Below, piece after piece: positions 7,768 to 39,907 of a stretch of 41,058 bases of DNA (its first letter is position 1; each line of letters begins with the position of its first letter). This DNA comes from Anaerolineae bacterium (lineage in GTDB: Bacteria > Chloroflexota > Anaerolineae > UBA7937 > B3-Chlor). A model generated the notes under the pieces. That model searched no databases and was not told where the DNA came from. It saw only the letters and a program-made list of their open reading frames with translations. The DNA lies in assembly GCA_035530015.1 (NCBI GenBank), contig DATKVP010000382.1:1-41058 (forward strand). Direction: 5' to 3'. The translations under genes were made by a program, and so were the position numbers.

Positions 7768-8033
7768 CGATAGACGGGTTCACGATCACGGCGCAGGCCT
7801 CGGACGAGGAGATCGGCCGGGCGTTCCTGCGCCTGCTGCTTTCTCTGGGAGGAGAAACCGATGAGACCCACCAACCTGAGCATGAGCAACTTCATGCCCT
7901 ACGCCGACGCCGAGCTGGATCTGAGCTCGCTACACCTGGCGTGTCTGGCCGGCGAGAACGGCCACGGCAAGTCGGCGATCATCGACGCCATCACCTGGGC
8001 GTTGTGGGGCAAGGCACGGGCCCGGCGGGATGA
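7764..8033 (+). CDS. Small ORF of uncertain extent, overlapping the SbcC-like start
   Basis: GTG at 7764 overlaps the upstream stop. The first ~33 codons have high GC3. After 7861 the frame looks like a shadow of the SbcC-like gene. Confidence 0.2.
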   Translation: MTIDGFTITAQASDEEIGRAFLRLLLSLGGETDETHQPEHEQLHALRRRRAGSELATPGVSGRRERPRQVGDHRRHHLGVVGQGTGPAG

Positions 8034-10122
8034 TGAGCTGATCCGCCTGGGCGAAGAGCAGATGGAGGTCCGCCTGGACTTCCTCCTCGGTGACCAGCGA
8101 TACCGAGTGATCCGCCAGAGGGACAGCTCAGGCCGGGGCAACTCCACGCTGGAGTTCCAGGTGGGGGGCAATGGGCAGTGGAGCGCGCTCTCGGGCAGCG
8201 CCATCAGGGAGACGCAGACGATCATCAACGAGACGCTCTCCATGGATTACGACACCTTCATCAACTCGGCGCTCTTGCTCCAGGGCCGGGCGGATGAGTT
8301 CACGAATCAACCCCCAGGGAAGCGCAAGGAGATCCTGGGGGAGATTTTACGCCTCCACGATTGGGATGATCTGGAGGAGAGGGCCAAGATCCGGGCCAGA
8401 GAGGCGCAGGGAGCGGCCAGCGCCATCGAGGCGAAGGCGCAGAGCATGGACGAGGAACTGGAGAAGCTCCCCGCCTATGAGGCTGAGCTCGAGGAGGCTT
8501 CGGAGCGAGCAGAACTGATCGGGGGTGAGATCGACGAGGCCCAGGGCAGCCTGGACCGGAAGAAGGAACAGGTCACAGAGCTATCATTCAAGCAACAGGC
8601 GCTGGCAGACGTGGAAGGGGAGGGGCGCCGGCGGAGGGAGGAACTAGAGTCGCTGCGGCGGCGGATCGAGCATCCTGGTAACCATCTCGGGGCTGATCTG
8701 GGATTGGTGCAGGATCAGATCACCGGCTACCAGAAGGAAGCAGCGGAGATCACGCAGCGGATGATCGGTTTTCATCCCGTGAAGTTGGAGTCATGCCGGG
8801 CAAAGGTGGCAGCGGTCCGGAGTGACTTGGCCGGGATGGCGGATCTGGCCGACAAGAGGAAGGCGCATGAGCAAGAGATTGGCCATCTCTCTGCAGAGAA
8901 GGCCAGCCTGACGGCCACGAATACGAGGCTACGAGAGGACATGGACGCCTTGAAGGAGGAGATGGCGCTCCTCGAGAGAGCGGGGGCCGCATGTCCTCTT
9001 TGCGATTCTGAGCTCACCGACGAACACCGCCAGGAGATTCTCTCGGGCAAGCAGGCCGAGGGCAAGGCGAAGGCGGACGAATATCGGAAGAACAAGGAGA
9101 TCATCGAGGAAGATGACAACGAATTGAGCGCGTGGCAGCAGGCCCTGCGTGAGATAGAGACGGAACTCAATCGGGAGAGATTGCTCCGACAACAGGAGAG
9201 TGAAGGCGTCGCGCTAGTAGCGAAGCTAGAGGCCGAACAAGAACGCCTCGAGGAGTGGAGCGCGCAGGTAGAGAAGCTCAAAGAGTCTATCAGGGAAGCC
9301 AAGGATCGCCACGAGACCATGAAGGCCGAGCGGATCGCCGAATGGGAGGGAGAAGCGGCGAAGCTCGAGGAGACCGTCGGCGAGCTCAGGACCAAGAGCG
9401 ACGCGCTGCGACTAGAGCTGGCCGGTGCGGACGAACTGACCCGAGCGATGGGGGAACTACAGGCGCAGATCCAGAGGCTGGATTTGGAGCTTAATCACGT
9501 CCGGCAGAAGGTAGGCGGGGCCCAGCAGAAGCTCGATCATTGCCAGTACCTCGAGAAGGAGAAGGCGAAGCTGGAGCAGCAGCACGCGGAGGCCTCCTCC
9601 TCCTCCTATCTCTACGAGCAGTTGAAGCTGGCCTTCGGCAAACGGGGCATCCAGGCCATGATCATCGAGACGGTGCTCCCCGAGATCGAGGAGGGCGCCA
9701 ACGAGCTGCTCGGGAGGATGACGGACGGGCGGATGAGCGTCCAGTTCGAGAGCCAGAGGGAGACCAAAGCGGGCACCATCAGTGAGACGCTGGACATCCA
9801 GGTGGGAGACGAGCTCGGGACGAGGAGCTATGACCTGTTCTCGGGTGGAGAGCGGTACAGACTGGACTTCGCCATCAGGATCGCCATCTCGCAACTCCTG
9901 GCCAGGAGAGCGGGGGCGAGGCTGGAGACGTTGATCCTCGATGAGGGCTTTGGATCGCAGGACGCCGCCGGCCGTGAGAGGCTGGTGGAGGCGATCAACT
10001 CCATTCAGGGCGACTTCGGATTGGTCCTGGTGGTGACGCACATCGAGGAGTTGAAGGAGCAGTTCCCCGCGCGGATCGAGGTGGTGAAGGGCCCGGCGGG
10101 GAGCGTGGTGAGTGTGAACTGA
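7861..10122 (+). CDS. SbcC/Rad50-family SMC-like ATPase
   Basis: Walker A GENGHGKSAIIDAI, long coiled coil with zinc hook CPLC, signature LSGGERYRLDFAIRIA, Walker B LILDEGFGSQD, and VVTHIEEL. Confidence 0.85.
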   Translation: MRPTNLSMSNFMPYADAELDLSSLHLACLAGENGHGKSAIIDAITWALWGKARARRDDELIRLGEEQMEVRLDFLLGDQRYRVIRQRDSSGRGNSTLEFQVGGNGQWSALSGSAIRETQTIINETLSMDYDTFINSALLLQGRADEFTNQPPGKRKEILGEILRLHDWDDLEERAKIRAREAQGAASAIEAKAQSMDEELEKLPAYEAELEEASERAELIGGEIDEAQGSLDRKKEQVTELSFKQQALADVEGEGRRRREELESLRRRIEHPGNHLGADLGLVQDQITGYQKEAAEITQRMIGFHPVKLESCRAKVAAVRSDLAGMADLADKRKAHEQEIGHLSAEKASLTATNTRLREDMDALKEEMALLERAGAACPLCDSELTDEHRQEILSGKQAEGKAKADEYRKNKEIIEEDDNELSAWQQALREIETELNRERLLRQQESEGVALVAKLEAEQERLEEWSAQVEKLKESIREAKDRHETMKAERIAEWEGEAAKLEETVGELRTKSDALRLELAGADELTRAMGELQAQIQRLDLELNHVRQKVGGAQQKLDHCQYLEKEKAKLEQQHAEASSSSYLYEQLKLAFGKRGIQAMIIETVLPEIEEGANELLGRMTDGRMSVQFESQRETKAGTISETLDIQVGDELGTRSYDLFSGGERYRLDFAIRIAISQLLARRAGARLETLILDEGFGSQDAAGRERLVEAINSIQGDFGLVLVVTHIEELKEQFPARIEVVKGPAGSVVSVN

Positions 10123-10123
10123 G

Positions 10124-10630
10124 ATGATATTCAAGCAGTGGGAGCAAGTGCTGGGGTTGACCCTACCGCTCAAGAGCCAGACGCGGCGGGTCAATTGCCC
10201 CTACGAACTCGCCGTGCAGCTATGGAAGCATGGGTGGAGCTATCCCCGGAACAATCGTAGGACTTCAGGAGGGAGTGTTTATCGTCCATATACTCCTTGG
10301 GATGAATGGCAGAAGCGACATCCGATCACCGATGCCCAGATTGCCGAGGCCAACCGCATCCTTGCTGAGCACGTCGTCACCCTTCCGGTCCAGCCGGGCC
10401 GGGGCAAGAAGTCTATGGGCCGGATACGAATAACCAAGATACGGCGGGAGAGGCTACAAGACATCAAGCCAGAAGAGTTCCGTAAGGAAGGGCTAGTCAG
10501 TGGTGCCCCGATTATGATTCTGTGGTTTATCGAACTGTGGAGCAAGATGTACCGGAAGCCCTACCGCTGGGAGGACAACCCCGATGTGTGGGTGCTGGAG
10601 TTTGAACTGGTCAAAGGGAGTGAATCATGA
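10124..10630 (+). CDS. ASCH-domain-like protein
   Basis: N-terminal K-x-QTRR motif and C-terminal NPDVWVLEFELV pattern typical of ASCH beta-barrels. Inserted between the SbcC-like and SbcD-like genes. Confidence 0.5.
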   Translation: MIFKQWEQVLGLTLPLKSQTRRVNCPYELAVQLWKHGWSYPRNNRRTSGGSVYRPYTPWDEWQKRHPITDAQIAEANRILAEHVVTLPVQPGRGKKSMGRIRITKIRRERLQDIKPEEFRKEGLVSGAPIMILWFIELWSKMYRKPYRWEDNPDVWVLEFELVKGSES

Positions 10631-11856
10631 GAATCCTACACTTCGCTGATGCGCACACTGGTTTGGATGACTCAGGGCCCATCGATCGGCAGACAGGGCT
10701 GAGCGCGCGCTTGACGGACTACCTGGATTCGCTGGACCGGATCGCCGAGTACGTGGAAACGCAGGACATCAACGTGGTGGTCTTCTCCGGCGATGCCTTC
10801 CACGTCTGCCGGCCCACCCCCACTTTCGAGCGGGAGTTCGCCAAGAGAATCAACAGGATGGCCTCCAGTGCCCCCGTGGTCGTGCTGGTGGGCAACCATG
10901 ACATGCCGGGAGCGTTCGGAAAGGCGCATCCTCTGGCGATCTACTCGGCACTCCATGTGCCGGAGGTGCATGTGGTGGACCGGCCTCAGTTGCTGCACCT
11001 GGAGACCCATGCAGGCTCGATCCAAGTCGTGGGGATCCCCTGGCCCAGCAGGCACAACGTGATGACCTCTGAGAAGGTCGCCGGTTTGCCCAAAGAGGAA
11101 GTCAACCGCCTGATCGGCGAAGCGGTGGCGGAGAGCATACAGAAGCTGGCCCGGAAGATGGACCCCGATTTGCCCTCCATCCTGGCGGCCCATCTGAGCG
11201 TCGAGGGCGGCGACATGGGCGGAGGCACGCCGGTGGGGTTGGGAACTGAGATCTCCTTGCCTCTCGAGGCGGTGGCGCTGCCACAGTTTGACTACGTGGC
11301 CCTGGGCCACCTCCACAAATACCAATCGCTGAACGACAGCCCGCCCGTGGTGTATGCCGGCAGCATCGAGAGGAACGACTTCGGCGAGGAGCACGAGGAG
11401 AAGGGCTTCGTGGTAGTGGAGTTGGGGAACGGGGACGAGGATGATCTGCTCGAGGGGGCATTCACCAGCGTGGAGTTCGTGCCCCTGCCGGCGAGGAAGT
11501 TCGTGACCATCCAGGTCTCTCTTGATGGTACGGATCCCACCCAGGCGGTGCTCCAGGCGATCGGGGAGCGGCAGATCGAGGACGCGATAGTGAGGGTGAT
11601 CATCGAGGGCACGGCGGAGCAAGCGGCGCTGCTGGATGAGACGCAGGTGCAGCGGGCGCTGAAGCCGGCCCTGCGCCAGGCGGTGAACAAGAGGATCGAG
11701 CGGGAGACCAGGACGCGCCTCGAGGGGATGAGCTATCAGGAGATGAGTCCCTATGCTCTGCTGGGGGCATATCTGGAGAGCAACGGGAAGGGGCCGGAGG
11801 AGTGTGAGGCGCTGATGAAGGCGGCAGAGGAGTTGATGATGGAGGTGGCGGCATGA
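10627..11856 (+). CDS. SbcD/Mre11-family nuclease
   Basis: Calcineurin-type phosphoesterase motifs ILHFADAH, VVFSGDAFH, VGNHD, AHLSVEG and LGHLH. Confidence 0.85.
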   Translation: MRILHFADAHTGLDDSGPIDRQTGLSARLTDYLDSLDRIAEYVETQDINVVVFSGDAFHVCRPTPTFEREFAKRINRMASSAPVVVLVGNHDMPGAFGKAHPLAIYSALHVPEVHVVDRPQLLHLETHAGSIQVVGIPWPSRHNVMTSEKVAGLPKEEVNRLIGEAVAESIQKLARKMDPDLPSILAAHLSVEGGDMGGGTPVGLGTEISLPLEAVALPQFDYVALGHLHKYQSLNDSPPVVYAGSIERNDFGEEHEEKGFVVVELGNGDEDDLLEGAFTSVEFVPLPARKFVTIQVSLDGTDPTQAVLQAIGERQIEDAIVRVIIEGTAEQAALLDETQVQRALKPALRQAVNKRIERETRTRLEGMSYQEMSPYALLGAYLESNGKGPEECEALMKAAEELMMEVAA

Positions 11857-12068: not shown

Positions 12069-12288
12069 CATAGTCCAGCAGATCGTGGAGCGGGGAATGG
12101 AGGAGAAACAGGGCAAGCCCAATTGCTCACGCTGTGCCGATGAAGACCATTGCCTGATTGCCTTCATGGGTCCAGCGATCAAGATCAAGCCCAGCTACGT
12201 TGCAGCTCCTGGCTGTGGCCGGTTCGAGCCCAAGAGATATGATGCGGGGGAGGAGGACGATGCAGATCAAGGGTCTGAGAAAGGTTAA
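12061..12288 (+). CDS. Small Cys-containing protein with an acidic tail
   Basis: ATG preceded by gggaggagaagg. Has CSRC...HC...GC residues. No family recognised. Confidence 0.4.
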   Translation: MSNIVQQIVERGMEEKQGKPNCSRCADEDHCLIAFMGPAIKIKPSYVAAPGCGRFEPKRYDAGEEDDADQGSEKG

Positions 12289-13234
12289 GCGGTTCAAAAT
12301 CATCGGGCGGATCGGCCTGGGGATCACCGTGCCTGTCCTGGACAAAAAGACGGGGCAGCAGGTGATCAGGGATGGGGAGCCGGTGACCATGCCGCAGTCC
12401 ACCGATCATTTCGTTGTGCCCCCAGAAGTGGCTGAGGTCCTGCGCGACAGCACGCCCAAGGCGATGCGGATCCACTTCGAGAGAGACAGCCTGGATGACG
12501 TGTTCCCCACCGGCCTGATGCAGTTCCGGGGCAACGGCGATCTGATCTGCATGGGCGATGGCGAGAGGGTCACCTTCCGCCGGCACATCGCTTCCGATCA
12601 CTCCACCGAGACGGTGGTCTACGAGAGGGTCGCGCGTTGGGATCGGATCGAGGAGCTGGGCCTGCTGGAGGAGAAGAAGTGGGCCGACGAGAAGAACGGC
12701 TACGGCACCACCGAGCGGATCGGAACGAACGCGATCAAGTGTCTCTACATGGATTGCCCGCGGTACAAGGCGCTGCTCTGCAAACCCACCGGGAAGCTCA
12801 GGTTCTGCATCGAGGGCGTCACCACGCGCCAAGGGTATTACCAAATGACCGTCCACTTCAACCCCATGAGAGAGATCATCACTCAGCTCGACGATGGCCG
12901 GCAGCGGATCAGGAACCACACTGGCCGGGCCACCATCGTCTGGCCCGCGAAGTGGCGGCTGAAGCTCACGGGGCCCACAGAGCAATGGATGAATGTCAGG
13001 AAGGGCGGGCAGACCGAGAAGCGCCTGATCAAAAACATCTACACGCCCGAGCTGGAGCTGGATCCTCTGTGGCTGGAGGACCTCGAGGCGGGCCGGGTGG
13101 AGTTTCCCCAGATGGAGACGCTGACGGACACCGACGTCTGGGGTCCGCAAGAGGAAGAGTTGGACAAGAGCCTTCTCGATCCAGAGCCGTTCGTGGAGAG
13201 CAGCAACGACGAAGAGGATGATCTGCCGTTCTGA
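12260..13234 (+). CDS. 324-aa protein of unknown family ending in an SSB-like acidic tip (DEEDDLPF); candidate ssDNA-binding/annealing protein
   Basis: ATG at 12260 preceded by gggggaggagg (the tracked ORF starts upstream at 12158). The C-terminus SSNDEEDDLPF resembles the bacterial SSB tip DDDIPF. It sits in the recombination module. Confidence 0.4.
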   Translation: MQIKGLRKVKRFKIIGRIGLGITVPVLDKKTGQQVIRDGEPVTMPQSTDHFVVPPEVAEVLRDSTPKAMRIHFERDSLDDVFPTGLMQFRGNGDLICMGDGERVTFRRHIASDHSTETVVYERVARWDRIEELGLLEEKKWADEKNGYGTTERIGTNAIKCLYMDCPRYKALLCKPTGKLRFCIEGVTTRQGYYQMTVHFNPMREIITQLDDGRQRIRNHTGRATIVWPAKWRLKLTGPTEQWMNVRKGGQTEKRLIKNIYTPELELDPLWLEDLEAGRVEFPQMETLTDTDVWGPQEEELDKSLLDPEPFVESSNDEEDDLPF

Positions 13235-15242: not shown

Positions 15243-15460
15243 TACGGGAGAACCTGAGTGACCCGATGAAACGGGCATTGCTGATGATCGGGGCGCTCTA
15301 CTATCTCCAAAACATCCGCTGGGATACTTACGGTGCGCTCGTCCGGCGCGGTTTAATTGTCCGGGAGGCCCGATCTAACAAGAAAGTAATCGGCCTCACG
15401 GATGAGGGCATGAAGGCGTATTGGGATACTCTCGATGAGTTGAGGGGGAGGAGACGATGA
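15227..15460 (+). repeat. Junction module type III, two copies (15227-15242 and 15445-15460)
   Basis: ggggaggagacgatga is identical in both copies. It encodes ...GRRR*, a Shine-Dalgarno and an ATGA stop/start overlap. Confidence 0.85.
15239..15460 (+). CDS. Hypothetical protein (73 aa)
   Basis: Delimited by the two type III junction modules. Confidence 0.45.
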   Translation: MIRENLSDPMKRALLMIGALYYLQNIRWDTYGALVRRGLIVREARSNKKVIGLTDEGMKAYWDTLDELRGRRR

Positions 15461-17127
15461 CACAGAGGATGGAGCTCTCACCGACTGAGATTGTGAGGTC
15501 CCGCTTTCAGACGAGGCAGGATGGATACCAGGGGGAGTCGTTCGAGGGGCTGGTGAGCTCCGTGAAACGCCACGGGCTGATCAACCCCCTGGGGGTGATC
15601 GTCAACGAGTCAAATGAGTTCGAGCTGGTGTACGGCCACCGCCGGCTGGAGGCGGCGCGCAAGGCGCAGCTCAAAACGCTGCCAGTGGACGTGATCGCCA
15701 GCCTGATCAGCACCGATGACGTGGCGGGTGAGTTGGACAAGATCCAGGAGATGGTGCTGGTAGACAACCTCTTCCACGAGGACCTGACAGCGCTGGAAGT
15801 TGCTCGGGGGCTCCAGGAGCTGATCAGACTACAGGGGCTCAGCCAGGAGCAGGTCGCCCAGGTCGTGGGGAAGAGCCAGCAATGGGTGAGCGACAAGCTG
15901 CGCCTGCTCGACCTGGCTGAGCCGGTGAAGAAGGCGGTCACCGGGCGCTCGGTAGAGGAGACGGTGGCGCGGCGGCTGGCCACACTGCCCGAGAACATGC
16001 AGGAGTCGGTCCTCGAGTATGTGAAGGGGAAGGCGTCGAGGGAAGCCAATGAGATCATCGGGGAGATCAAGGAGGCTACGGATCCTGAGTTCTGGGACCT
16101 GCCCGAAGACAAGCCGTGGGAGCCGGAGAAGATCAACGTCAAGGCCATGTTAGACGATTGCCTGGACCAGGTGCCCCCAGAGAAGAAGGGCGAGGCGCTA
16201 GTCAATCTGCAGGCACGCGGGCTCCTGAAGGGGCCGGGCCAGCAGTACGCCTATTCGATGGGTGGCTTCCCATCCGCGTGCGGGTTGAAGCACAAGAGCA
16301 TGGGCGCATGGCAGAAGGCGCAGGAGCGGACTTGCGAGCACTGTGTGTGGCAGGGAGAGCACATACATTATCAGTGCGGCCAGGAGAGGGAGACCTGTGA
16401 ATCTTGCCTCATCGAGACTGACGAGGTGAGGCTGCCGGTGCCCTGCGGGGAGACGGAGGCGGATTGCCAGGCCTGTGAGAAGGACCCGGGCTGGTGCACC
16501 GACGTGGCCTGCTACATCGAGCACTGCAAGGCGGTCTCCCGAGAGGCCGAGGCTGCGGTAGATGAGGCAGGGCTCGAGAGGGACATCGAGGCGCAAGAGG
16601 CCCTGCGGGCATTCTATGATCGGCAGACAGGAGAGGGGATCACCCGGGATCATTGGCTGGCTCAAGCCTGTGAGTATTGCGCGCTGTGGCGAGGGCCGGA
16701 GCAGCGGGATCAGTGTAACGCGGAAAAGCCGCAGCATATACAGACAGGCTTCTGGCAGAGCGAGGGGGTGACCGTGCCCCGCTGCACCGGCTTCGGGCTG
16801 AGGAATCTGGCGAGAGTGCCCGAGATCGATCAGGCGCGCTTCGAGGAGATCCTGCTCGTGGGGCTGGATGAGCTACGCCGGATGGGCAGTCTGAGGCCTC
16901 GGGGGATTTATAAGGGGGGTGAAGATGACGACTTCATCGCCACCATCAAAGAGGCTGGACTGAACAAGCGGCAGCTCGTGGCGCTCTGGATCTCCGCCAT
17001 CAACTCCCGCGTCGATGGCGTTTGGGGCGGTACGGAGAGGAGCCTGATCAACCCCATCACGGGGGAGAAGACGATATGGCTTGTGATCCCCCAACAGCCG
17101 GAGGACGATGAAGACGCAGATTCCTGA
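15457..17127 (+). CDS. ParB/Srx-like nuclease-domain protein with HTH and a Cys-rich C-terminal region
   Basis: ParB N-terminal motif ELVYGHRRLEAARKAQLKTLPVDVI. HTH segment LSQEQVAQVVGKSQQWVSDKLRLLDL. Multiple CxxC pairs after residue ~290. Confidence 0.7.
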   Translation: MTQRMELSPTEIVRSRFQTRQDGYQGESFEGLVSSVKRHGLINPLGVIVNESNEFELVYGHRRLEAARKAQLKTLPVDVIASLISTDDVAGELDKIQEMVLVDNLFHEDLTALEVARGLQELIRLQGLSQEQVAQVVGKSQQWVSDKLRLLDLAEPVKKAVTGRSVEETVARRLATLPENMQESVLEYVKGKASREANEIIGEIKEATDPEFWDLPEDKPWEPEKINVKAMLDDCLDQVPPEKKGEALVNLQARGLLKGPGQQYAYSMGGFPSACGLKHKSMGAWQKAQERTCEHCVWQGEHIHYQCGQERETCESCLIETDEVRLPVPCGETEADCQACEKDPGWCTDVACYIEHCKAVSREAEAAVDEAGLERDIEAQEALRAFYDRQTGEGITRDHWLAQACEYCALWRGPEQRDQCNAEKPQHIQTGFWQSEGVTVPRCTGFGLRNLARVPEIDQARFEEILLVGLDELRRMGSLRPRGIYKGGEDDDFIATIKEAGLNKRQLVALWISAINSRVDGVWGGTERSLINPITGEKTIWLVIPQQPEDDEDADS

Positions 17128-19938: not shown

Positions 19939-20135
19939 CGGGAGCGACGTTGATTACGGCTAATGGTGAGCTGCACCTGGGGAAGCGGACCACGGCCATC
20001 GTGGAGGAATTGCTCGCCATCGCGGCCAAGATCGAGGTGCCTCGCAAGGGGAAGGTGGAGATCACCGTGGACTTCTCCAACGGCTCGCTGACGGTAGCGG
20101 TGAGAGAGGTAGGGGAGAGCAGGAGGATTGAGTGA
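19935..20135 (+). CDS. Hypothetical protein (66 aa; GTG start)
   Basis: GTG at 19935 overlaps the upstream TGA. Ends in junction module type II, copy 1. Confidence 0.35.
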   Translation: MTGATLITANGELHLGKRTTAIVEELLAIAAKIEVPRKGKVEITVDFSNGSLTVAVREVGESRRIE

Positions 20136-20539
20136 TGGACGAATGGGAACGGCAGTACCAAGCAGAGCTCGAGACATTGTTGTCAGTCGTGGCCCTGAGT
20201 GATGATTTTTGGGGGAATGTAGAGCCGAAATTCGCCGCTCAGGCGACATTTGGAGTGTATCGTCACGCAATTATGCGGTTGCCAGTGTTGCGGCAACATC
20301 TGACCCTACAGGCCGTGGATGCAAGTTGCTGGGATGGCATCAAAAGGAGATGGCTGCCTGATCGGCTCCAGCGGATTTTCATCCCGCATGTACGGTGCTT
20401 TGACATCAATGAGATCACGAGTCCGAACGGAAAGGTTACTAGATATTTGCTGCGAACGGATTATCTCACGCAGAAGGAATGGGGCGCGAAACTGAGGAGG
20501 CTAATGGCGGAGGAACATAGGGCAGAGCAGGAGGATTGA
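20132..20539 (+). CDS. Hypothetical protein (135 aa), accessory island
   Basis: Bounded by module II copies 1 and 2. Lower GC than the genome average by eye. Confidence 0.5.
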   Translation: MMDEWERQYQAELETLLSVVALSDDFWGNVEPKFAAQATFGVYRHAIMRLPVLRQHLTLQAVDASCWDGIKRRWLPDRLQRIFIPHVRCFDINEITSPNGKVTRYLLRTDYLTQKEWGAKLRRLMAEEHRAEQED

Positions 20540-20962
20540 GTGAGCAACATCTCAAGGCGAGGCTTCATAGGATTCATCGGCGCGTGTATAGCAGGCCTGA
20601 TCCGCATAGGCAAGACAGAGGCGGGCTTTCAGTCCATCGTAGATGAGATGGACCACCCGACCCTGCCGGATACGCTGCTCGGGTTCCCCATCGAGTGGAC
20701 CGACACCAAGTTTGTCGGGAGTGAGAAGATTATCCTGTCGCCCTTGTCATGTGGCGAGGCGGAACTCGAAGCGGCGAGGATAGCGCGATGGAAAGCCTGG
20801 ACAAGTCTTGACCTGCCCTGCAACAGGTGCGGCACTACTATGGTGTTTTCGTCGGGCAACCGGTCAGGCTATCGGTTCAGCAAGCTGGTTTACAAATGCC
20901 CGGATTGTGGTTGGGGGATTGAGATGCCGATCCTGTCATGCGAGATCCCGCAGGAGGATTGA
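20540..20962 (+). CDS. Tat-signal-like / C-terminal zinc-ribbon protein, paralog 1
   Basis: The N-terminus SRRGFIGFIGACIAGLIRIG resembles a twin-arginine signal. The C-terminus has CNRC...CPDC. Paralog of 21378..21818. Confidence 0.55.
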   Translation: MSNISRRGFIGFIGACIAGLIRIGKTEAGFQSIVDEMDHPTLPDTLLGFPIEWTDTKFVGSEKIILSPLSCGEAELEAARIARWKAWTSLDLPCNRCGTTMVFSSGNRSGYRFSKLVYKCPDCGWGIEMPILSCEIPQED

Positions 20963-21148
20963 ATGAGCAACACTGTCAACCGTGCTGAAGTGCTCCCCTT
21001 GGTAGTCGCGGCTCTGAAGGCGTCCAGCCTCAAACCTGTCTGGTATGTGGACAACGAAATGCAGTATCAAGATGCTGCCCACAAGGTCTTGACTGAGCTA
21101 CTGGACGCCGGCGCGCTTCTGCTTGAGGGGGAAGTAGAAGGTGAGTGA
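20963..21148 (+). CDS. Hypothetical protein (61 aa)
   Basis: ATG directly after module II copy 3. Confidence 0.4.
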   Translation: MSNTVNRAEVLPLVVAALKASSLKPVWYVDNEMQYQDAAHKVLTELLDAGALLLEGEVEGE

Positions 21149-21377
21149 CCCGCTTCTTTACTGTAGTGATTTCAATGCTGGCCCCTGTTGCTCAAGCTGT
21201 CACTACGATGAAGAGCTGGGCTATGCTGACATGATTGAGCTAGAGGATAGTCATGGTGCATACTGTGGGCGCGTATGCTGCGTCGTTTGGAATGAATGCC
21301 TAGAGCCTTTGTCGGATACAGAGCAGGAAGCGCTAATCGAGCGCAAGCAGCAGGAGAAGGGAGAGCAGGAGGATTGA
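21141..21377 (+). CDS. Cys-rich hypothetical protein (78 aa)
   Basis: GTG start. Has CCSSCHY...CGRVCC. Ends in module II copy 4. Confidence 0.4.
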   Translation: MSDPLLYCSDFNAGPCCSSCHYDEELGYADMIELEDSHGAYCGRVCCVVWNECLEPLSDTEQEALIERKQQEKGEQED

Positions 21378-21818
21378 ATGACGGTATCAAGGCGAGGCTT
21401 CATGGGGCTTCTTCTCGCGTGTTTCGCAGGTCTGACGCGCATAGGCAAGACAGAGGCGGCCTTTCAACGGCTCGCAGATCAGGTGGACCACCCGACCCTG
21501 CCGGATACGCTGCTCGGTCGGCCGCTCCTATACTCCAGCAACTATGGCGAGGCGAGGGAGTCCTTCTGGAAGGAGACCCTCATGCCCTTCTACCGGGACA
21601 CGCTTGGCGAGGCGGAACTCGAGGCGGCGAGGGTAGCGCGATGGAAAGCCTGGACCAGTCTTGACCTGGCTTGCAGTAGGTGCGGCGCTCCTATGGTGTT
21701 TTCATGCGTCACTCGCTCGGACGGCCATTGGTTCAGCAAGTTGGTTTACAAATGCCCGGATTGTGTTTGGCAGTTTGAGGTGCCAATCAAGACATGCGAG
21801 ATCCCGCAGGAGGATTGA
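21378..21818 (+). CDS. Tat-signal-like / zinc-ribbon protein, paralog 2, carrying a portal-derived peptide segment
   Basis: SRRGFMGLLLACFAGLTRIG...CSRC...CPDC. The central segment YSSNYGEARESFWKETLMPFYRDTL matches portal residues encoded at 25012-25092. Confidence 0.6.
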   Translation: MTVSRRGFMGLLLACFAGLTRIGKTEAAFQRLADQVDHPTLPDTLLGRPLLYSSNYGEARESFWKETLMPFYRDTLGEAELEAARVARWKAWTSLDLACSRCGAPMVFSCVTRSDGHWFSKLVYKCPDCVWQFEVPIKTCEIPQED

Positions 21819-22064
21819 ATGACTGAGACGGAGAAGATGGCGAAACAGATCAAGACGCTCCTCTATCTCCTGGGTGATCCGGGTGGCCGCGAGCTACTGG
21901 ACAGGATGGTGGCAGCCCAGCTTGGTGAAGTTCGCAAGGCCGTGTGGATGGGCGGGGTCAAGATAAACTGTGGCAGCCTGGTCGTGACAGATGAGGACGT
22001 CACGCGATGGGATCACCTCGAGGGCAAGGAAGTGACGATGTACCTAGTGGACGAAGCCGCTTGA
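21819..22064 (+). CDS. Hypothetical protein (81 aa) immediately upstream of the late promoter
   Basis: ATG directly after module II copy 5. Its stop codon lies inside the -35 hexamer of the late promoter. Confidence 0.45.
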   Translation: MTETEKMAKQIKTLLYLLGDPGGRELLDRMVAAQLGEVRKAVWMGGVKINCGSLVVTDEDVTRWDHLEGKEVTMYLVDEAA

Positions 22065-22662: not shown

Positions 22663-24079
22663 CTCTGTACTTTTCAAACTGCAATACCAGTATGACCCCT
22701 TGGCCTTCGTCCATGACTGTGTGAGATTCGCCGCCGGCGAACAGTTGGCCGAGTACCAAGAGGAGATCCTGGAGGAGCTGATCCCTCGCAAGAGGATTGC
22801 GGTGAGGGGCCCCCATGGCCTGGGCAAGACGGCGCTCGCGGCGTGGATCGTGCTCTGGGCGGTGCTCACAGCAGAGGATGTCAAAGTCCCGACCACGGCA
22901 TCGGCGTGGCGCCAGGTCACCAAGTTTCTCTGGCCGGAGATCCACAAGTGGTCTTATCGGCTGGACTGGAACCGGGTGGGCCGGGCGGCATTCAGCAGAG
23001 ACGAACTGCTCACACTCTCGCTGAAACTCTCACCAATCCGCGAGGCCTTCGGGGTGGTCTCGGACAATGCAGCTCTGATCGAGGGGGCCCATGCCCAGCG
23101 GATCGTGTACGTGTTCGATGAGGCCAAAGAGATCCCGGATCCAACCTGGGACGCAGCAGAAGGGGCGTTCGCGGGCGCTGGGGAGGATACGGGAGCAGAG
23201 GCTTACGCCTTTGCTATCTCCACCCCAGGGGCACCCGTGGGACGCTTCTATGACATCCATGCCCGGAAGCCAGGTTACGATGATTGGTGGCCCAGGCACG
23301 TCACGCTCGAGGAGGCGATCAAGGCACGGCGGATCAGCAGGGAATGGGCTGACCGCAGACGCACGCAGTGGGGGGAGAAGTCGGCGGTCTTTCTCAATCG
23401 CGTAGAAGGGGAGTTTGCCAGCTCTGAAGCGGATAGCATCATCTCCCTGAGCTGGGTGGAAGCGGCCAATGACCGCTGGCGGGAGTGGGTGGAGGCGGGG
23501 TCGCCTATGTGCCACAACGAGGATGGCACGTTGAAGCCCATGGACGTCGTGGGGGTGGACGTAGCCCGATCGGGTGAGGATCAGACCGTCCTGGCCCTGA
23601 GATACGGCCAGATCATCACTGAGATCAGGGCGTATAGCAAAGAGGACACGATGCAGACCACCGGGCGCGTGGTAGGGGTCCTTGAGGGGCATGGGGGCAA
23701 GGCCATCGTAGACGTGATCGGGATAGGCGCTGGGGTCTACGATCGTCTGAGAGAACAACAGTACGACGCGGAGCCCTTTAATGCAGCCGCGGGCTCCAAG
23801 ATCAGGGATCAAAGTGGAGAATGGGGTTTCGTGAATCAACGGGCGGAGGCCTGGTGGACGCTGAGGGAGCTCCTCAGTGACCCGGAGAGCCAGGTGGCAT
23901 TGCCGCCCGATGATCAGTTGACGGGGGACCTGACCGCACCGACGTGGAAGGCCGTGAGCGGAGGCAAGATCAGGGTGGAGGCCAAAGAGGACATCAAGAA
24001 ACGGATCGGCCGCAGCACTGACTACGGGGACGGTGTAGTGCAAGCGTTCTGGCCCGGCGCGCCCAAGGCGTACTACTAA
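22556..24079 (+). CDS. terL: Terminase large subunit (start uncertain: GTG 22556 or TTG 22619)
   Basis: Walker A-like GPHGLGKTALAAW and Walker B-like VYVFDEAKE. The nuclease domain begins VGVDVARSGEDQTVL. Confidence 0.85.
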   Translation: MQTSRWRGEVTTSGLSGCSRSLTRQERAEILSLATDSVLFKLQYQYDPLAFVHDCVRFAAGEQLAEYQEEILEELIPRKRIAVRGPHGLGKTALAAWIVLWAVLTAEDVKVPTTASAWRQVTKFLWPEIHKWSYRLDWNRVGRAAFSRDELLTLSLKLSPIREAFGVVSDNAALIEGAHAQRIVYVFDEAKEIPDPTWDAAEGAFAGAGEDTGAEAYAFAISTPGAPVGRFYDIHARKPGYDDWWPRHVTLEEAIKARRISREWADRRRTQWGEKSAVFLNRVEGEFASSEADSIISLSWVEAANDRWREWVEAGSPMCHNEDGTLKPMDVVGVDVARSGEDQTVLALRYGQIITEIRAYSKEDTMQTTGRVVGVLEGHGGKAIVDVIGIGAGVYDRLREQQYDAEPFNAAAGSKIRDQSGEWGFVNQRAEAWWTLRELLSDPESQVALPPDDQLTGDLTAPTWKAVSGGKIRVEAKEDIKKRIGRSTDYGDGVVQAFWPGAPKAYY

Positions 24080-26172
24080 TGGGATTGAGAGACAGGCTGC
24101 AACTAGCGGCATGGGCACTGTTCAACAGCAAGGGCATCTCGGGCCTGGACATGCTGATGGGCGCCGATGCCAAGAGCTGGTTCCCCAAGACCGATTTCAA
24201 CCGCCTCTCTGCCGAGGGCTACGAGTACAACGCGGTGGTCTATGCCTGTGTGAATGAGCGGGCCACGTCCACCTCCGAGCCCAGGGTGGTAGTAGAGACC
24301 AAGGATCGCAAAGGCGAATGGCAGGAGAAACCGGATCACTCGATGGCGCGGCTGCTCGACAGGCCAAACGTGGAGATGAGCCAGTACGACTTCTTCTTCA
24401 CCACTGTGATGTATCTGGACATCGCGGGGAACGCCTTCTGGGAGAAGGAGCGGAGCAAGGCGGGCAGAGTAGTGGGGCTCTGGCCCATGCGGCCCGATCG
24501 CGTGGGAATCGTCGCTCTGGAGAGCAAGCCTGGCGAGAGGATCAAGCGCCGGATCGAAAGCTATACCTGGCGGTATATGGCTGATCTGATCACCCTGCCG
24601 GCCCGAAATGTGATCCAGTTCAAGCATCAGCACCCCCGGGATGATCTCTTCGGGTGGCCTCCGCTGGGATCCGCCGCGCGCCAGGGAGACACGGACAACC
24701 GCGCCACGAACTACGTGGCCAGCTTCTTCGACAACGCCGCGGTGCCGAAAGGGCTGCTCTCGGTCAAGGGGCGCATCGATGACGCCGAAGAGAAGCGACT
24801 GAAGAAGCGCATTCATGCTCAGTTCACAGGTCAGGGCGGATGGCACGATACGCTGATCCTGGGAGAGGGCTCCACGTGGACCGAGCTGGCCGAGACCTTC
24901 AAGGACATGGACTTCCCCAATCTCCGCAAGATGACGGAGAGCCGGATCTGCATGGTCTTCCAGGTGCCGCCAATCCTCATCGGTGCGTTCGTGGGTTTGG
25001 AGCACGCTACATACAGCAACTATGGCGAGGCCAGGGAGAGCTTCTGGAAGGAGACGCTGATGCCCTTCTACCGGAAGCTCCAAGACACGCTCAATCGGGG
25101 CCTGGCGCCGGAGTTTGGGCCGGACGTGCGGATGAGGTTCGACTTCTCGACGGTGATGGCCCTCCAGGAGGACAAGAATCAGATCTGGACTCGGGCCAGG
25201 GAGGCGGCCACTGCCGGCTTCATCACTGTCAACGACTTCCGGGAGCAGGTGGGCTTGCCCAGGGTGCAGGATGGAGACGTCTTCCTGCGGCCAATGATGA
25301 TCTCGGAGATCCCCGCGCTGGAGGAGGGGCAGCAGAAGGCGCTCCAGATCAGCTCGCCAGAGACGAAGATGGCCAGCAAGCTCGACGAGGAGAAGCTGGA
25401 GGTCTACTACAAGGCCTTCGACATGGTGGCCCGGGCCTGGGAGGCACAGTTCCGCCGCAAGGCACAGCAGCTATTCGCGGAGGAGCTGGCGCAGATCCTG
25501 GCCATTCTCCGCAAGGAGGGCAAGGCCTCGATCGAAGGGCTGGCGTTTGCGGGGTTCCTGGATGCGGTGATCGCCTTCCTCATTGGTCGAAACGGCCAGC
25601 AGGGGGCTTGGGCGCAGGGCTTCTTCCCACTGTTCGAGGGGCTGATGGAGAGCCAGGCGGAGAACGTGGCCGGCGCGCTGGGCATCGCCTGGGACATCGC
25701 CTCTCCGGAGGCGCAGGAGTTCATCCGGGGATACACGATCAAGTTCGCCGACACGGTGGTGCCCACTACCGAGCGCGCGGTGAGGGAGCTGGTGGGGCAG
25801 GCGCAGGAGGAGGGGTGGTCGGTGCCCCGGCTGCGCGAGGAGATCACTGAGCGGTTCACTGAGTTCGATGAACAGCGGGCGAACGCCATCGCCAGATCGG
25901 AGACCATCAGGAGCTCCAACGCCGGGACGCATGAGGCCTGGAGATCGGCGGGGATAGAGAGGACGCAGTGGTATGCGAGTATCGATGGCCGGCAGTGTCC
26001 CTTCTGCGAGGACCTATACATCAAATACGGCCCGGGGACGCCGGGCATCTCGATCACAGAGAACTATGTCAATCTGGGGGATACGCTGACGGTGGATGCG
26101 GGCGATGGGAAGAGCAAGAGCATGACGGTCACTTATACGGACGTCGCCTATCCCCCCCTGCACGCGCTTTGA
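24079..26172 (+). CDS. Portal protein (HK97 family) fused to a C-terminal MuF/SPP1 gp7-like head morphogenesis domain
   Basis: Portal core includes YSNYGEARESFWKETLMPFY. The C-terminus has RANAIARSETIRSSNAG...IDGRQCPFCEDL...YPPLHAL* followed by in-frame RCT. Confidence 0.85.
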   Translation: MGLRDRLQLAAWALFNSKGISGLDMLMGADAKSWFPKTDFNRLSAEGYEYNAVVYACVNERATSTSEPRVVVETKDRKGEWQEKPDHSMARLLDRPNVEMSQYDFFFTTVMYLDIAGNAFWEKERSKAGRVVGLWPMRPDRVGIVALESKPGERIKRRIESYTWRYMADLITLPARNVIQFKHQHPRDDLFGWPPLGSAARQGDTDNRATNYVASFFDNAAVPKGLLSVKGRIDDAEEKRLKKRIHAQFTGQGGWHDTLILGEGSTWTELAETFKDMDFPNLRKMTESRICMVFQVPPILIGAFVGLEHATYSNYGEARESFWKETLMPFYRKLQDTLNRGLAPEFGPDVRMRFDFSTVMALQEDKNQIWTRAREAATAGFITVNDFREQVGLPRVQDGDVFLRPMMISEIPALEEGQQKALQISSPETKMASKLDEEKLEVYYKAFDMVARAWEAQFRRKAQQLFAEELAQILAILRKEGKASIEGLAFAGFLDAVIAFLIGRNGQQGAWAQGFFPLFEGLMESQAENVAGALGIAWDIASPEAQEFIRGYTIKFADTVVPTTERAVRELVGQAQEEGWSVPRLREEITERFTEFDEQRANAIARSETIRSSNAGTHEAWRSAGIERTQWYASIDGRQCPFCEDLYIKYGPGTPGISITENYVNLGDTLTVDAGDGKSKSMTVTYTDVAYPPLHAL

Positions 26173-27722: not shown

Positions 27723-29096
27723 GTGGGAAACGAAATCGATCCTAGAGTGCAGAAGATCCTGGAAGAGGCTCATGCCGTCAATCAGAAGGGCATTGAGCTC
27801 TATACGGCTATCGTGGCAGGGGACCGCGGCATCGAGGACATGCCACAGGCCGACGCCTGGCTCGACGAAGCGAAGAAGAAGGCGGACGGCGCGCACAGGT
27901 TTGAGGGCGGGCTGGAGCTGAACGCCTATCTGAACGACGGCGAAGGCTCCCTCACGGCGGGGACCGTGGAGGTCTTGACACCCGGCAAGATCAAGGGTGG
28001 CAATGGACACGGAGCCGGCGATGGAGATCGTTACTGGCGCGACAGTGGGCATTTCGGGATGGCCGTGCTGGCCGCTGGGGACCTGGACCTGGAGCGCAAG
28101 CTGCGGAGCCAGGGCCTGGTGAACGAGGAGGACATCGCTCACCTGTACGAGCGGCAGAAGGAGACCAAGACCCTCATGCAGGAGGGGTTGGGGGCCTCCG
28201 GTGGCTTCCTGGTGGAAGTGCCGTATCTGGCCGAGCTGTTCATGAAGGCGTGGGAGGGCTCGATTGTGCGCCGTCGCGCTCGGGTGATCCCGATGGGGAC
28301 GCGGCAGATTCAGATGCCAACCATCGACCAGACGATCACCCCGGCCAACCAGAAGTCGGCCTTCTTCGGCGGCGTCAACTACCAATGGATCGAGGAGGGC
28401 GAGAGCAAGCCCGAATTGGAGTTGAAGTTCAAGCTGGTCACCCTCACGGTGCACGAGCTGGCGGGCTACCTGCCGGTGACGAACAACCTGATCGAGGACT
28501 CGGCCATCAGTATCAACGGCATCTTGAACACGATGCTGCCTGCAAGTATGGCTGACGCCGAAGATTGGTGGTTTATCAACGGCAATGGCGCGGGGGTTCC
28601 GCAGGGGATCATTTCGGCCCCCTGCACCATCCAGGTTGCCAGGGCCGGGGCGACGGCCATTGCCTGGGCGGACATCAAGGCCATGGTCCACGCCTTCCAG
28701 CCCGGCGCTAACGGTGTCTGGATAGCGCACATCTGCTGCAAGGAAGAGATCATGGAGTTGCAGGACGCGGCCGGAAACGCGCTGTGGCTTGCCAACATCG
28801 TGAGCGGTATGCCTGAGCGGCTGATGGGCTACCCGATCATCTGGACTGAGAAGACCCCGAACCTGGGGACCAAGGGAGACATCGGCTTATACGATCTCTC
28901 CTACTACCTGCTCGGCGATCGCCGGGGGCCGACGTTGGAGATGAGCAAGGAGTACCTGTTCAGATACAACCAGACCGCCTTCCGGATCTCCGAAAGGGTG
29001 GATGGGCAGCCGTGGCTTTCGGCTGACGTGGACCTGCGGCCGACAGGTGCGGTGAGCATTTCGCCGTTCGTCACGCTCAATACCTACGGTGCGTAG
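27723..29096 (+). CDS. Major capsid protein, HK97 fold, with an N-terminal delta-like coiled segment
   Basis: GTG start preceded by ggaggtg. Has GASGGFLVEVPYLAELF...RRRARVIPMGTRQIQMPT... typical of the HK97 MCP family. Confidence 0.85.
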   Translation: MGNEIDPRVQKILEEAHAVNQKGIELYTAIVAGDRGIEDMPQADAWLDEAKKKADGAHRFEGGLELNAYLNDGEGSLTAGTVEVLTPGKIKGGNGHGAGDGDRYWRDSGHFGMAVLAAGDLDLERKLRSQGLVNEEDIAHLYERQKETKTLMQEGLGASGGFLVEVPYLAELFMKAWEGSIVRRRARVIPMGTRQIQMPTIDQTITPANQKSAFFGGVNYQWIEEGESKPELELKFKLVTLTVHELAGYLPVTNNLIEDSAISINGILNTMLPASMADAEDWWFINGNGAGVPQGIISAPCTIQVARAGATAIAWADIKAMVHAFQPGANGVWIAHICCKEEIMELQDAAGNALWLANIVSGMPERLMGYPIIWTEKTPNLGTKGDIGLYDLSYYLLGDRRGPTLEMSKEYLFRYNQTAFRISERVDGQPWLSADVDLRPTGAVSISPFVTLNTYGA

Positions 29097-29103
29097 ACAA
29101 TCG

Positions 29104-29127
29104 GGGGAGGGGTGAAAGCCCCTCCCC
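29104..29127 (+). promoter_or_regulatory. Perfect 9-bp GC hairpin just after the capsid gene (attenuator or mRNA-stability element); no U-tract
   Basis: GGGGAGGGG-tgaaag-CCCCTCCCC starts 8 nt after the MCP stop codon. Confidence 0.5.
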
Positions 29128-29141
29128 AGCAGGAGGCCAAT

Positions 29142-29603
29142 ATGGAGAGAGCACTGTACGAACTGGACAGGTTCGACAATGACGTGACGGCGAGCTATTT
29201 CGAGCCTCAGCTCGTAGCCGCAGGCGCGGAGCCGACTGGAGCATGGCTGAGTATGCTACCCTATGACAGGGCGATGTTCATGCTCATGGCCGGCGACTGG
29301 ACCAATATCGGGGACCAGTTGGACGCGCAGGTGTACCAGGCCACGACCAACGCTGGAGCTGGCGCGAAGGTCATCGCCGGCAAGGCGATCACGACGTACA
29401 CCAGCCTGGCGACGGACGAGGACAATCTCTGGTACATCCACATCGATGTGTCAGAGCTGGACGTGGACCTCTACTTTGCCTACATCCAGCTTCAGATCAC
29501 CGTTTCGGCAAACGATTCGGTCTATATCGCCGCGCTGTGTGAGCGGGAGAGCCGCGTGTTCGAGCCCGTTCCTGTAATCAACGTGACTGAGATTATCGCA
29601 TAG
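29142..29603 (+). CDS. Head accessory protein, tandem paralog 1 (possible decoration protein)
   Basis: ATG at 29142 preceded by caggagg (the tracked ORF starts at GTG 29112, inside the hairpin). Paralogous to 29617..30111. Confidence 0.45.
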   Translation: MERALYELDRFDNDVTASYFEPQLVAAGAEPTGAWLSMLPYDRAMFMLMAGDWTNIGDQLDAQVYQATTNAGAGAKVIAGKAITTYTSLATDEDNLWYIHIDVSELDVDLYFAYIQLQITVSANDSVYIAALCERESRVFEPVPVINVTEIIA

Positions 29604-29616
29604 CCAGGAGGGCGAA

Positions 29617-30111
29617 ATGCCAGAAGACAGCTTGATCGAGAGAGACCGGCACGATGGGGACGCGGTGGCTTGTTTGGTGGAGCCGCAGATCCTCGCCGCC
29701 GGCGTGACCACGACCCCAACGGTGACCATGAGGGGCTATGACCGCGTTGTGTTCTCCATCCTGGGCGGCGCGGCCAATGACGCTAACGCCACGCTGGATG
29801 TGCTGGTGCAGCAATGCACGCAGGCGAACGACGCGGGCGCCGACGACAAGAACCTTGCGGGCCTGTATGGCAGCAAGGCGATCACCCAGGTGACGGCTGG
29901 AGCGGACTTCGCCACTCTCAATCAGAAGTGGCTGATCGAGGTGAGTACCGAGGAAATGGACGTCGATGCCTACTTCGACTTCCTCCTGCTGGAGATCACC
30001 GTGAGCGCGGACGACACCTGGTACATTGCAGTCGAGGCCCAGCGCAGCGGGGCCGATTACGAGCCAGTGGCAATCACGAACATCACTCAGGCGATAGGCA
30101 CGACCGCATAA
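29617..30111 (+). CDS. Head accessory protein, tandem paralog 2
   Basis: Shares with paralog 1 the pattern YDR..F.....G.......LD..V.Q.T......D.......WLIEVS.EEMDVD.YF....L.ITVSA.D. Confidence 0.45.
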   Translation: MPEDSLIERDRHDGDAVACLVEPQILAAGVTTTPTVTMRGYDRVVFSILGGAANDANATLDVLVQQCTQANDAGADDKNLAGLYGSKAITQVTAGADFATLNQKWLIEVSTEEMDVDAYFDFLLLEITVSADDTWYIAVEAQRSGADYEPVAITNITQAIGTTA

Positions 30112-32410: not shown

Positions 32411-32643
32411 TGAAAGGGGAGGAGAAGGTGGCACCGACAGGATCAGTCTCTGTGAACATCCGCAGGAGTAAGTGGAACTGGAAGGGCAAACTGGTCACGG
32501 CTTCATTGAAGCTGCCGAGGGTTGGGATCAGATTCGCCGGCTGGCTCTGGGATGAGTTGAAGCCACTATCGATCCAGACAGGGAGCCAACCCCCTCATTA
32601 CATGACGTGGAGTGAAGTGATCACGAGGGGAACCGTGCAATGA
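32410..32643 (+). CDS. Hypothetical protein (77 aa; GTG start)
   Basis: ORF with moderate GC3. The start is uncertain (alternative GTG at 32428). Confidence 0.3.
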   Translation: MKGEEKVAPTGSVSVNIRRSKWNWKGKLVTASLKLPRVGIRFAGWLWDELKPLSIQTGSQPPHYMTWSEVITRGTVQ

Positions 32644-33803
32644 AGTACGTCGAGGATACCTTCATAGGGGCGGATGGAACGGACCTGAGCGCGCACGCGC
32701 CGGACATCGACCGGCCAGGGGGCGGGTACGCGGAGATCGCCGGCGATTGGGAGATCGCCTCGAACGCCGCGGGGGTGACGTCGGTGGCCAACGCCAGGGT
32801 GGTGATCCTGACAGATCTGGCCGACGGGCGCTTCAAGGTGGACGCCTCGATCGTGGCCGCGACTAAGGGGGCGTTCCTGGTATTCCGCAGCAATGCCGGA
32901 TGCACCAACTACTGGCTGGCGGGGTTGGACGATACAGCGCAGCAGGTGCAGCTCCTGGTGGCCTCGGGAGGGGCCCCGGCGGTGCAGGCCTTTCGCGCTT
33001 ATGCCGTGGACGAGGCCGAGACCTACGAGATCAAGGTGGTGTGCCGGGCAGATGAGATCACGGTCTACATCGACGATGCGGTCCAGATCCGCCACACCAG
33101 CGCCACCCACGAGACGGAGGAGCACGCCGGCCTATACTCCGATACGAACGTGGATGTGGCCTTCGATGATCTGGTGGCTGATGAGAGGCCGACGTGTCAC
33201 TACTGCACCACGGCGGACGTGAAGAGCCGGCTGGGGGCGCAGTTTACCTCGGGGACGACCTACGACGAGGAGCTGGAGGCGGACATCGAGGAGGCGTCCC
33301 GCCTGATCGACCTGGAGAAGGGGTGGGAGGAGTGCCACTACTCCGCCTCGGACCTGGCCATGGTGACCCGGTATTATGATGGGCTGGGCGGGACCGAGCA
33401 GGAGATCGATCGCTTCCTGGACGACGCGGCTTTCGCGGTGGCCGTGGACGACGACGGTGACGGGGTGTATACGGCCTGGGTGAGGAATACCGATTACATC
33501 ACCTGGCCCTACAATGTGGAGTACATCACGGAGCTCTTCCTGGCCACAGGATCCACGGTCAGCTTCACGGTGGCGCAGCGGTCCGTGCAGGTGACGGGCA
33601 GGTTGGGGGCGTATAGCGAGCCGCCGGCGGTGGTCAGGAAGGCGGCGGTGATCATGGTGGCCAAGGCGTACAAGCGCGGGATGCAGATGTTCCAGGACAC
33701 GGGGGCCATCGTAGAGCTGGGGCAGTTGAAGTACGTGCTGGCCATCGATCCGGAGGTGGAGAAGATCCTGAGCGTGCTGCCCAGGAGGGTCAACTATGGC
33801 TGA
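32640..33803 (+). CDS. Fusion of a lectin-like beta-sandwich module and a head-tail adaptor (gp6-like connector)
   Basis: The N-terminal half shares VxDTFxxAxGxxLxxHxPDxD...FR with the tail-tip protein. The C-terminal half starts YCTTADVKSRLG...YDEELEADIEEASRLID, typical of connector/adaptor proteins. Confidence 0.5.
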   Translation: MKYVEDTFIGADGTDLSAHAPDIDRPGGGYAEIAGDWEIASNAAGVTSVANARVVILTDLADGRFKVDASIVAATKGAFLVFRSNAGCTNYWLAGLDDTAQQVQLLVASGGAPAVQAFRAYAVDEAETYEIKVVCRADEITVYIDDAVQIRHTSATHETEEHAGLYSDTNVDVAFDDLVADERPTCHYCTTADVKSRLGAQFTSGTTYDEELEADIEEASRLIDLEKGWEECHYSASDLAMVTRYYDGLGGTEQEIDRFLDDAAFAVAVDDDGDGVYTAWVRNTDYITWPYNVEYITELFLATGSTVSFTVAQRSVQVTGRLGAYSEPPAVVRKAAVIMVAKAYKRGMQMFQDTGAIVELGQLKYVLAIDPEVEKILSVLPRRVNYG

Positions 33804-39905: not shown

Positions 39906-39907
39906 GC

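Follow-up and report, generated by a model that had tools for sequence, protein, structure and literature searches.

The window, by which we mean the whole stretch of 41,058 nucleotides analysed here, is filled by a temperate tailed-phage genome of ~40 kb with a G+C content of 60.8%. Among its temperate-phage functions are a large serine recombinase encoded on the minus strand (5179-6693) and a Gp3-like recombination directionality factor (12158-13234). The window also encodes an SbcC/Rad50-like ATPase followed by a metallophosphoesterase (7861-11856, the SbcC/Rad50-like gene itself occupying 7861-10122), a ParB-like protein (15457-17127) and a cell-wall hydrolase, and no tRNA genes were found in it. 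The head module comprises the small terminase, the large terminase, a portal-MuF fusion, an S78 protease and an HK97-type capsid protein. Just 5' of the SbcC/Rad50-like gene lies a 51-bp tandem repeat (7618-7717, two copies, 91% matching), and 3' of the capsid gene two adjacent paralogs (29112-29603 and 29617-30111) share 38% identity over ~170 aa and have no family assignment. The window ends (1-1042 and 39885-40945) are mutually repeated with 89-90% identity, and the proteins of the genes at 23-2245 and 39821-41056 are 64% identical, both being more distantly like that of 32640-33803; these repeats mean either that a circular genome was put together from two strain variants or that the genes are tail-fibre-like paralogs. 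We sought a host match for the phage in a phage collection and, with the portal as query, in a genome collection, and found none. Relatives of the phage, with 78-95% identity in the portal gene, occur in metagenomes of marine sediment (run X8), other soils (X9-X11) and estuaries (X7 and X12), and include the loci L009 and L010.

Five consecutive small genes are joined by a 15-mer on the plus strand, CAGGAGGATTGA(A/G)TG (20120-20134, 20528-20542, 20951-20965, 21366-21380 and 21807-21821), in which a Shine-Dalgarno site is found together with overlapping stop and start codons, and which was matched 5 times against 0.1 expected. These junctions look like translational coupling, and it is plausible that they also serve as sites of cassette exchange. 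Three of the proteins upstream of such junctions end in QED. Two of the small genes, paralog A (20540-20962, plus strand, 140 aa) and gene B (21378-21818, plus strand, 146 aa), stand in tandem and are 83-86% identical in their flanks while their middles are unrelated. Gene B encodes a twin-arginine-like N-terminus (SRRGFMG and an uncharged stretch), a middle derived from the portal gene and a C-terminal CxxC...CxxC zinc ribbon. In A, the middle (20683-20751, FPIEWTDTKFVGSEKIILSPLSC) is of the ancestral family type.

By searching 5.8 billion proteins, we found only B, A, P0002 and P0003 as members of this family. When 1.84 billion cluster representatives were searched exhaustively with a profile, no more than three distant clusters (P0125, P0126 and P0128) were gained, which makes 7 clusters in total; two further profile matches were set aside as non-members, P0127 being a repeat protein of 1169 aa and P0129 a multi-zinc-ribbon protein of 284 aa. 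No Pfam, PHROG or PADLOC model matched, and A and B belong to an uncharacterised and extremely rare phage protein family, whose members sit in differing gene contexts among related phages. The N-terminal motif reads SRRGFMG in B, SRRGFIG in A and TRRSFLK in the distant P0128, followed by ~14 uncharged residues; in B the uncharged stretch that goes with the twin-arginine motif, read from the sequence and starting at the Gly that follows RR, is 14 residues long (GFMGLLLACFAGLT). With the model TIGR01409 (cut-off 16.7 bits), P0002 and P0128 scored just under the cut-off (14.6 and 15.6 bits, respectively), and A and B were not listed. The twin-arginine-type N-terminus probably directs export or membrane anchoring of the protein. 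In a PROSITE-type lipobox, [LIVM..]x[AGS]C must be preceded by six or more uncharged residues. In this family RR falls within the six positions required to be uncharged, for which reason a lipoprotein signal was rejected; A14-C15 is invariant in the four close members and absent from P0125, P0126 and P0128. At the other end of the protein, C94, C97, C120 and C123 (A numbering) are invariant in the 7 sequences, as two CxxC pairs ~20-25 residues apart. These pairs make up a predicted four-cysteine zinc ribbon, which zinc-ribbon models matched only below threshold (e.g. Zn_ribbon_Com, 14.3 bits vs 22.9).

The middle of the family carries the motif [LM]G[FL]P[IT]xW...LSP..SGEAE, which is kept even in the distant P0125 and P0128. 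The ancestral middle is present in A, P0002, P0003, P0125 and P0128 and only partly recognisable in P0126, and B alone has this conserved middle replaced by a piece of the portal gene. The reading frame of B is intact and translationally coupled, and its flanks show a dN/dS of 0.2-0.5. The structure model of B is poor (pLDDT 53); in it the patch is predicted, with low confidence, to be a helix, after which come another helix and a zinc ribbon rich in beta structure.

The portal gene (24079-26172, plus strand, 697 aa) encodes an HK97-family portal domain fused to a Mu-F-like head-morphogenesis domain, a fusion common to its closest several dozen database relatives. Residues 53-390 matched PF04860 with 242.6 bits (gathering cut-off 39.1, E 7.7e-72) and PF04233 was matched as well; phrog_2662 gave E 2e-98, and the PDB entries 6TBA and 8CEZ, the RcGTA and HK97 portals, gave E 4e-29 and 9e-13, respectively. 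Judged by these matches, the gene encodes a bona fide HK97-family portal. An AlphaFold model built from a 93-sequence alignment was confident (pLDDT 85) and predicted a stem helix (279-294), a loop at the tunnel-loop position (295-311) and a 30-residue helix (312-341). The residues that recur in B (313-332) would form the N-terminal first two-thirds of this long helix, directly after the tunnel-loop position, and N314, A318, W323 and P329 among them are nearly invariant across the 93 portals. In the T4 portal, the tunnel loop likewise lies between the stem helix and a long bent helix (PMC4493910). From general portal architecture, the copied helix would be an interior, subunit-packing helix beside the channel and not an obvious exposed surface.

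The core of the copy lies at 21537-21596 (plus strand) and corresponds to portal codons 313-332 (25015-25074), both stretches being translated as SNYGEARESFWKETLMPFYR, with 55/60 nt and 20/20 aa identical. The five nucleotide differences fall in four codons (B/portal: GCG/GCC, TCC/AGC, ACC/ACG and CTC/CTG) and all are synonymous. In a self-BLAST of the window, the two segments aligned with E 2e-17 over a tract of 61 nt at 92% identity, as direct repeats 3.4 kb apart. The source-type segment of the portal (25015-25091, plus strand) continues with KLQ, which is not in B, and then DTL. Hence, B has a 9-nt gap where the portal has AAGCTCCAA (KLQ), after which homology is renewed for eight bases, GACACGCT (DTL; 21597-21604 on the plus strand, identical to 25084-25091). 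The portal segment is flanked by GCTACATAC on its 5' side and by AAGCTCCAA on its 3' side, and both indels adjoining the core are multiples of three. We tried to extend the portal homology 5' into 21523-21536, but this needed two indels and was not convincing. The original prediction had described an in-frame, DNA-level copy of the portal gene in an accessory gene, its five synonymous differences with a TCC/AGC serine switch, the return of homology past a 9-nt indel and a source in a conserved helix of HK97-family portals, and each of these points was borne out by our comparison of the two segments and by the four near-invariant residues in helix 312-341. Its suggestion that the accessory protein may mimic a portal surface was not, as the piece would, from general portal architecture, be an interior helix by the tunnel loop. 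No Pfam or PHROG portal model matched B as a portal homologue, and the likeness is limited to 20+3 residues.

In nucleotide alignments with A, L003 and L004, B can be aligned with A up to 21517 and again from 21605. Between these positions (21518-21604, plus strand), 87 nt stand in place of the family's conserved 69 nt, and 21537-21604 of them are portal-derived. Logan contigs of paralog A skip exactly 21517-21605 of B. Such sharp homology boundaries, together with relatives that have no inserted segment, mark a mosaic joint. Since only B is devoid of the family middle, B is a derived chimera and not a member of a family that normally contains portal sequence. The 9-mer TGGCGAGGC is found in the patch (21545-21553, plus strand), in the portal gene (25023) and in the family gene just 3' of the middle (20752 and 21605), and a second shared word, GCCCTT, occurs at 20740, 21584 and 25062; both may possibly have acted as recombination anchors. 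In a low-coverage X8 contig, the N-flank sequence of B runs into an ancestral-type middle (MPIKWTNANV).

As the contig is metagenomic and its ends carry the 89-90% repeats that hint at strain mixing, an assembler could have built a chimeric contig via shared k-mers. This is barely credible, because gene B has the same sequence (100% identity) in JGI, ENA and Logan assemblies, which are independent of one another and cover six soil runs. Moreover, contigs of B cover the patch without differences at depths of 57.9 and 376.8, against 66.7 and 536.6 for the portal, and the five differences from the portal give the patch k-mers of its own. Three assembly pipelines, six runs and comparable depth effectively refute an assembly chimera.

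We then asked how a copy can differ from its source at synonymous positions only. When random substitutions were simulated, the peptide stayed intact with P = 1.5e-4 for five changes and 8e-4 for four, which rules out, at P about 1e-4 to 1e-3, that the copy simply decayed neutrally. On this point the original prediction was right, but its further statement that the peptide looks maintained in both contexts does not follow, since B is a mosaic, a diverged donor is possible and the GCG difference is maybe related to the junction. The latter recreates the family 9-mer GGCGAGGCG, which is present twice in B, and may be a junction effect. Because B is itself mosaic, selection on the copied peptide in B is possible, not proven. 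We think it most likely, by a small margin, that the five synonymous differences predate the copying, the donor being the portal of an unsampled, diverged phage lineage. The N flank of B is 94.2% identical (dS 0.14) to an L004-type allele that keeps the ancestral middle and has no patch; for the C flank, identity to all known alleles is only 81-88%. With a C flank 12-19% diverged from the known alleles, the 8% divergence of the patch can be explained by a diverged, unsampled donor allele, and if the donor portal was 10-15% diverged, the synonymous differences would have accumulated under the portal's own constraint. Also, dS in the flanks (0.22-0.50) and pS in the patch (0.27) are similar in magnitude, and diverged relatives of the phage co-occur in sediment, soil and estuary metagenomes, which supports this reading. 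In the more distant portal L011, these Ala and Ser residues are encoded by GCG and TCG; thus, both serine codon families occur in this portal clade.

Several observations count against such a donor. AGC, ACG and CTG are found in all five sampled portal alleles, namely those of the window, of L009 and L010 (genes 78% identical to the window portal), of the X8 marine-sediment contigs (90-95%) and of the X9 soil-run contig (about 85%). The most parsimonious reading is therefore that TCC, ACC and CTC arose on the B branch. In a k-mer search, 31-mers of the patch occurred only in the six runs that hold this phage. Furthermore, a donor would have to encode exactly this 20-aa peptide, from which portals that are 15-22% diverged already depart at 1-3 residues. 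A degenerate-pattern scan of IMG/VR for a portal allele with B-type codons gave 0 matches, the same scan of a metagenome collection returned only L009, which has portal-type codons, and the closest portal loci and the Logan contigs of sister strains contained none either. A possible but lesser candidate is that the patch was copied in situ from the resident portal long ago and then kept by purifying selection on the protein in B, an explanation that needs no portal role; the patch could for example be an amphipathic helix linking the signal or N-helix to the zinc ribbon. The rejection of neutral decay favours it, as do codons that are B-specific while the portal-type ones are conserved in five portal alleles, the intact and translationally coupled frame with flanks under purifying selection, the two indels in multiples of three, the helix predicted for the patch in B (with low confidence), and a shift from the top-preferred codons of the structural genes to codons relatively commoner in accessory genes. 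However, the patch would require a dN/dS near zero against the 0.2-0.5 of the B flanks. At the flank values, four synonymous-only codon changes would by our calculation have a probability of a few percent, so that in-situ selection needs a patch far more constrained than the rest of B. A patch that old (pS about 0.3) would also be expected in diverged relatives and is known from a single clone only, the L004-type allele with an N flank at a dS of only 0.14 from B has none, and the sample consists of four codons only. We rank a diverged donor slightly above selection in situ. Recurrent gene conversion between the portal and B is far less probable than either. The two copies are direct repeats 3.4 kb apart with a 61-nt tract at 92% identity, but conversion would remove differences and not leave the synonymous ones alone, the longest exact runs are short and hence a poor substrate, and the portal copy is unchanged at these sites in four portal relatives. 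Searches for more B-like alleles, which included a protein search, the exhaustive HMM search and scans of IMG/VR in which the portal or the family alignment served as query, returned none, and nothing was found with the patch peptide alone; the patch is known from that one clone.

The original prediction had further proposed that B may mimic the portal, either as a decoy for a host sensor, as a dominant-negative inhibitor of competing phages' portal assembly or as a regulator contacting a portal partner. We consider it doubtful that B shows the portal helix in order to bind a portal partner, to poison the portal assembly of competitors or to titrate a host sensor. The identical peptide with synonymous divergence only and the near-invariant N314, A318, W323 and P329 among the copied residues speak for such a role. 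So does the existence of Lit and CapRel, sensors of short capsid motifs that make short-motif sensing possible in principle (PMC13581612), along with a weak hint of likeness to a major-capsid motif in the ancestral family middle. On the other hand, the twin-arginine-type N-terminus probably takes B out of the cytoplasm, in which portals assemble, and the copied piece is predicted to be an interior helix beside the tunnel loop and not a surface. The characterised portal sensors bind whole folds: Avs4, which like Avs11 is a defence sensor of the portal, and Avs1-4 as a group recognise whole folds by direct binding, and the Avs proteins generally have extended interfaces (PMC13581612). Moreover, with the phage's own portal peptide B would poison the assembly of its own phage, the only middle motif conserved in the family was lost to the patch, and the patch is found in one clone. 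A PADLOC search for membership in a defence system gave no match. The decoy, dominant-negative and regulator ideas are thus without support, with the Tat-type signal, the interior helix, the lost motif and the single clone opposing them.

The ancestral middle PDTLLGFPIEWTDT resembles the conserved motif LMGYPIIWTEKT of the capsid protein, and LPDTLLGFPIEWTDT in gene A (20668-20709) is like MPERLMGYPIIWTEKT (~28812-28853) in the capsid gene (27723-29096). This likeness exists at the protein level only, with no DNA-level identity, and the real score was reached by 1 to 27 of 1000 shuffles depending on the query, so that it may be within reach of chance. If it were real, mimicry would gain ground for the whole family. 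We accordingly thought of a broader scheme in which B, and perhaps the whole family, displays head-assembly peptides, the portal helix of B being under strong selection and the middle being a diverged capsid LMGYPIIWTEK, so as to titrate a short-motif factor of the host or of a rival phage or to regulate head assembly; we hold this scheme to be unlikely.

The feature is real, statistically solid and well delimited, and is most aptly classed as phage mosaicism below the gene level, from which a chimeric accessory gene arose. Our preferred, still tentative, account is that B is a sub-genic mosaic made by recombination, in which the helix is a tolerated passenger and not a portal mimic. In one allele, a short piece of a portal gene would have taken the place of the conserved middle with the reading frame kept, probably through short-patch illegitimate or homeologous recombination perhaps seeded by TGGCGAGGC and GCCCTT. 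The patch would come from the portal of an unsampled related phage lineage in which the B allele evolved, and the purifying selection on that donor portal would have filtered the changes before copying. Later, cassette exchange at the 15-bp gene junctions could have brought the B allele beside paralog A. Our best guess is that the portal helix would now be tolerated, or serve as a generic helical linker, in a diverging paralog, and that it would have no portal-related function; portal mimicry is unlikely. If mosaicism is all there is to it, the locus shows in a clear natural case how a new chimeric phage ORF is made: the helix is conserved and belongs to an essential gene, and it was put, in frame, in place of the conserved core of a paralogous accessory gene. 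It also calls for caution: where alleles are exchanged between diverged genomes, that two copies encode the same peptide and differ only synonymously does not prove that both are under selection. Should selection act on the peptide in B, this would be a rare reuse of a structural-protein motif by an accessory protein and would suggest that the long portal helix has a partner so far unknown.

Mosaicism by illegitimate or homeologous recombination is familiar from the classic HK97/HK022 and mycobacteriophage comparisons. B has in common with it the abrupt edges of homology, perhaps the short shared words near the joints, patch-free relatives, survivors that are in frame and conserved short gene-junction sequences as potential exchange points. 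Unlike in usual phage mosaicism, where joints fall between genes, B has its joints within a gene, the donated piece comes from an essential structural gene of the same or a sister genome, and a chimeric ORF has arisen that lost a conserved family motif to the exchange. Lambda Red is reported to promote recombination between diverged sequences, and homeologous or illegitimate recombination of this kind is known to build phage mosaics (PMC2327257). With respect to HK97-family portals (PF04860; 6TBA, 8CEZ), the donor is a member and the copied residues start the long helix after the tunnel-loop position, but B shares 20 (plus 3) residues and none of the portal fold. Phage-encoded mimics that act against host defence are exemplified by the Ocr-type DNA mimics. 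Another phage-encoded protein acting against defence is DSAD1, which is reported to act against DSR2 (PMC11087589). The idea shared with such mimics and decoys is an accessory protein that imitates what a sensor or partner recognises, but portal sensing in known systems concerns the whole fold, while B shares a single helix. Two near-identical short repeats, one of them inside a gene, also recall a diversity-generating retroelement. We rejected this candidate since the differences in B (C/G, AG/TC, G/C and G/C) are not at adenines, the peptide of B is unchanged instead of diversified, and no RT domain was found among the 30 of the window's ORFs that were scanned against Pfam. As for Tat signal peptides, the family motifs SRRGF(M/I)G and TRRSFLK with the uncharged stretch are alike, with scores below the curated TIGR01409 cut-off, and the putative cargo is here a small zinc-ribbon protein. 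Regardless of the patch, the combination of a Tat-like signal, the GFPIxW...LSP motif and a zinc ribbon makes this family of note.
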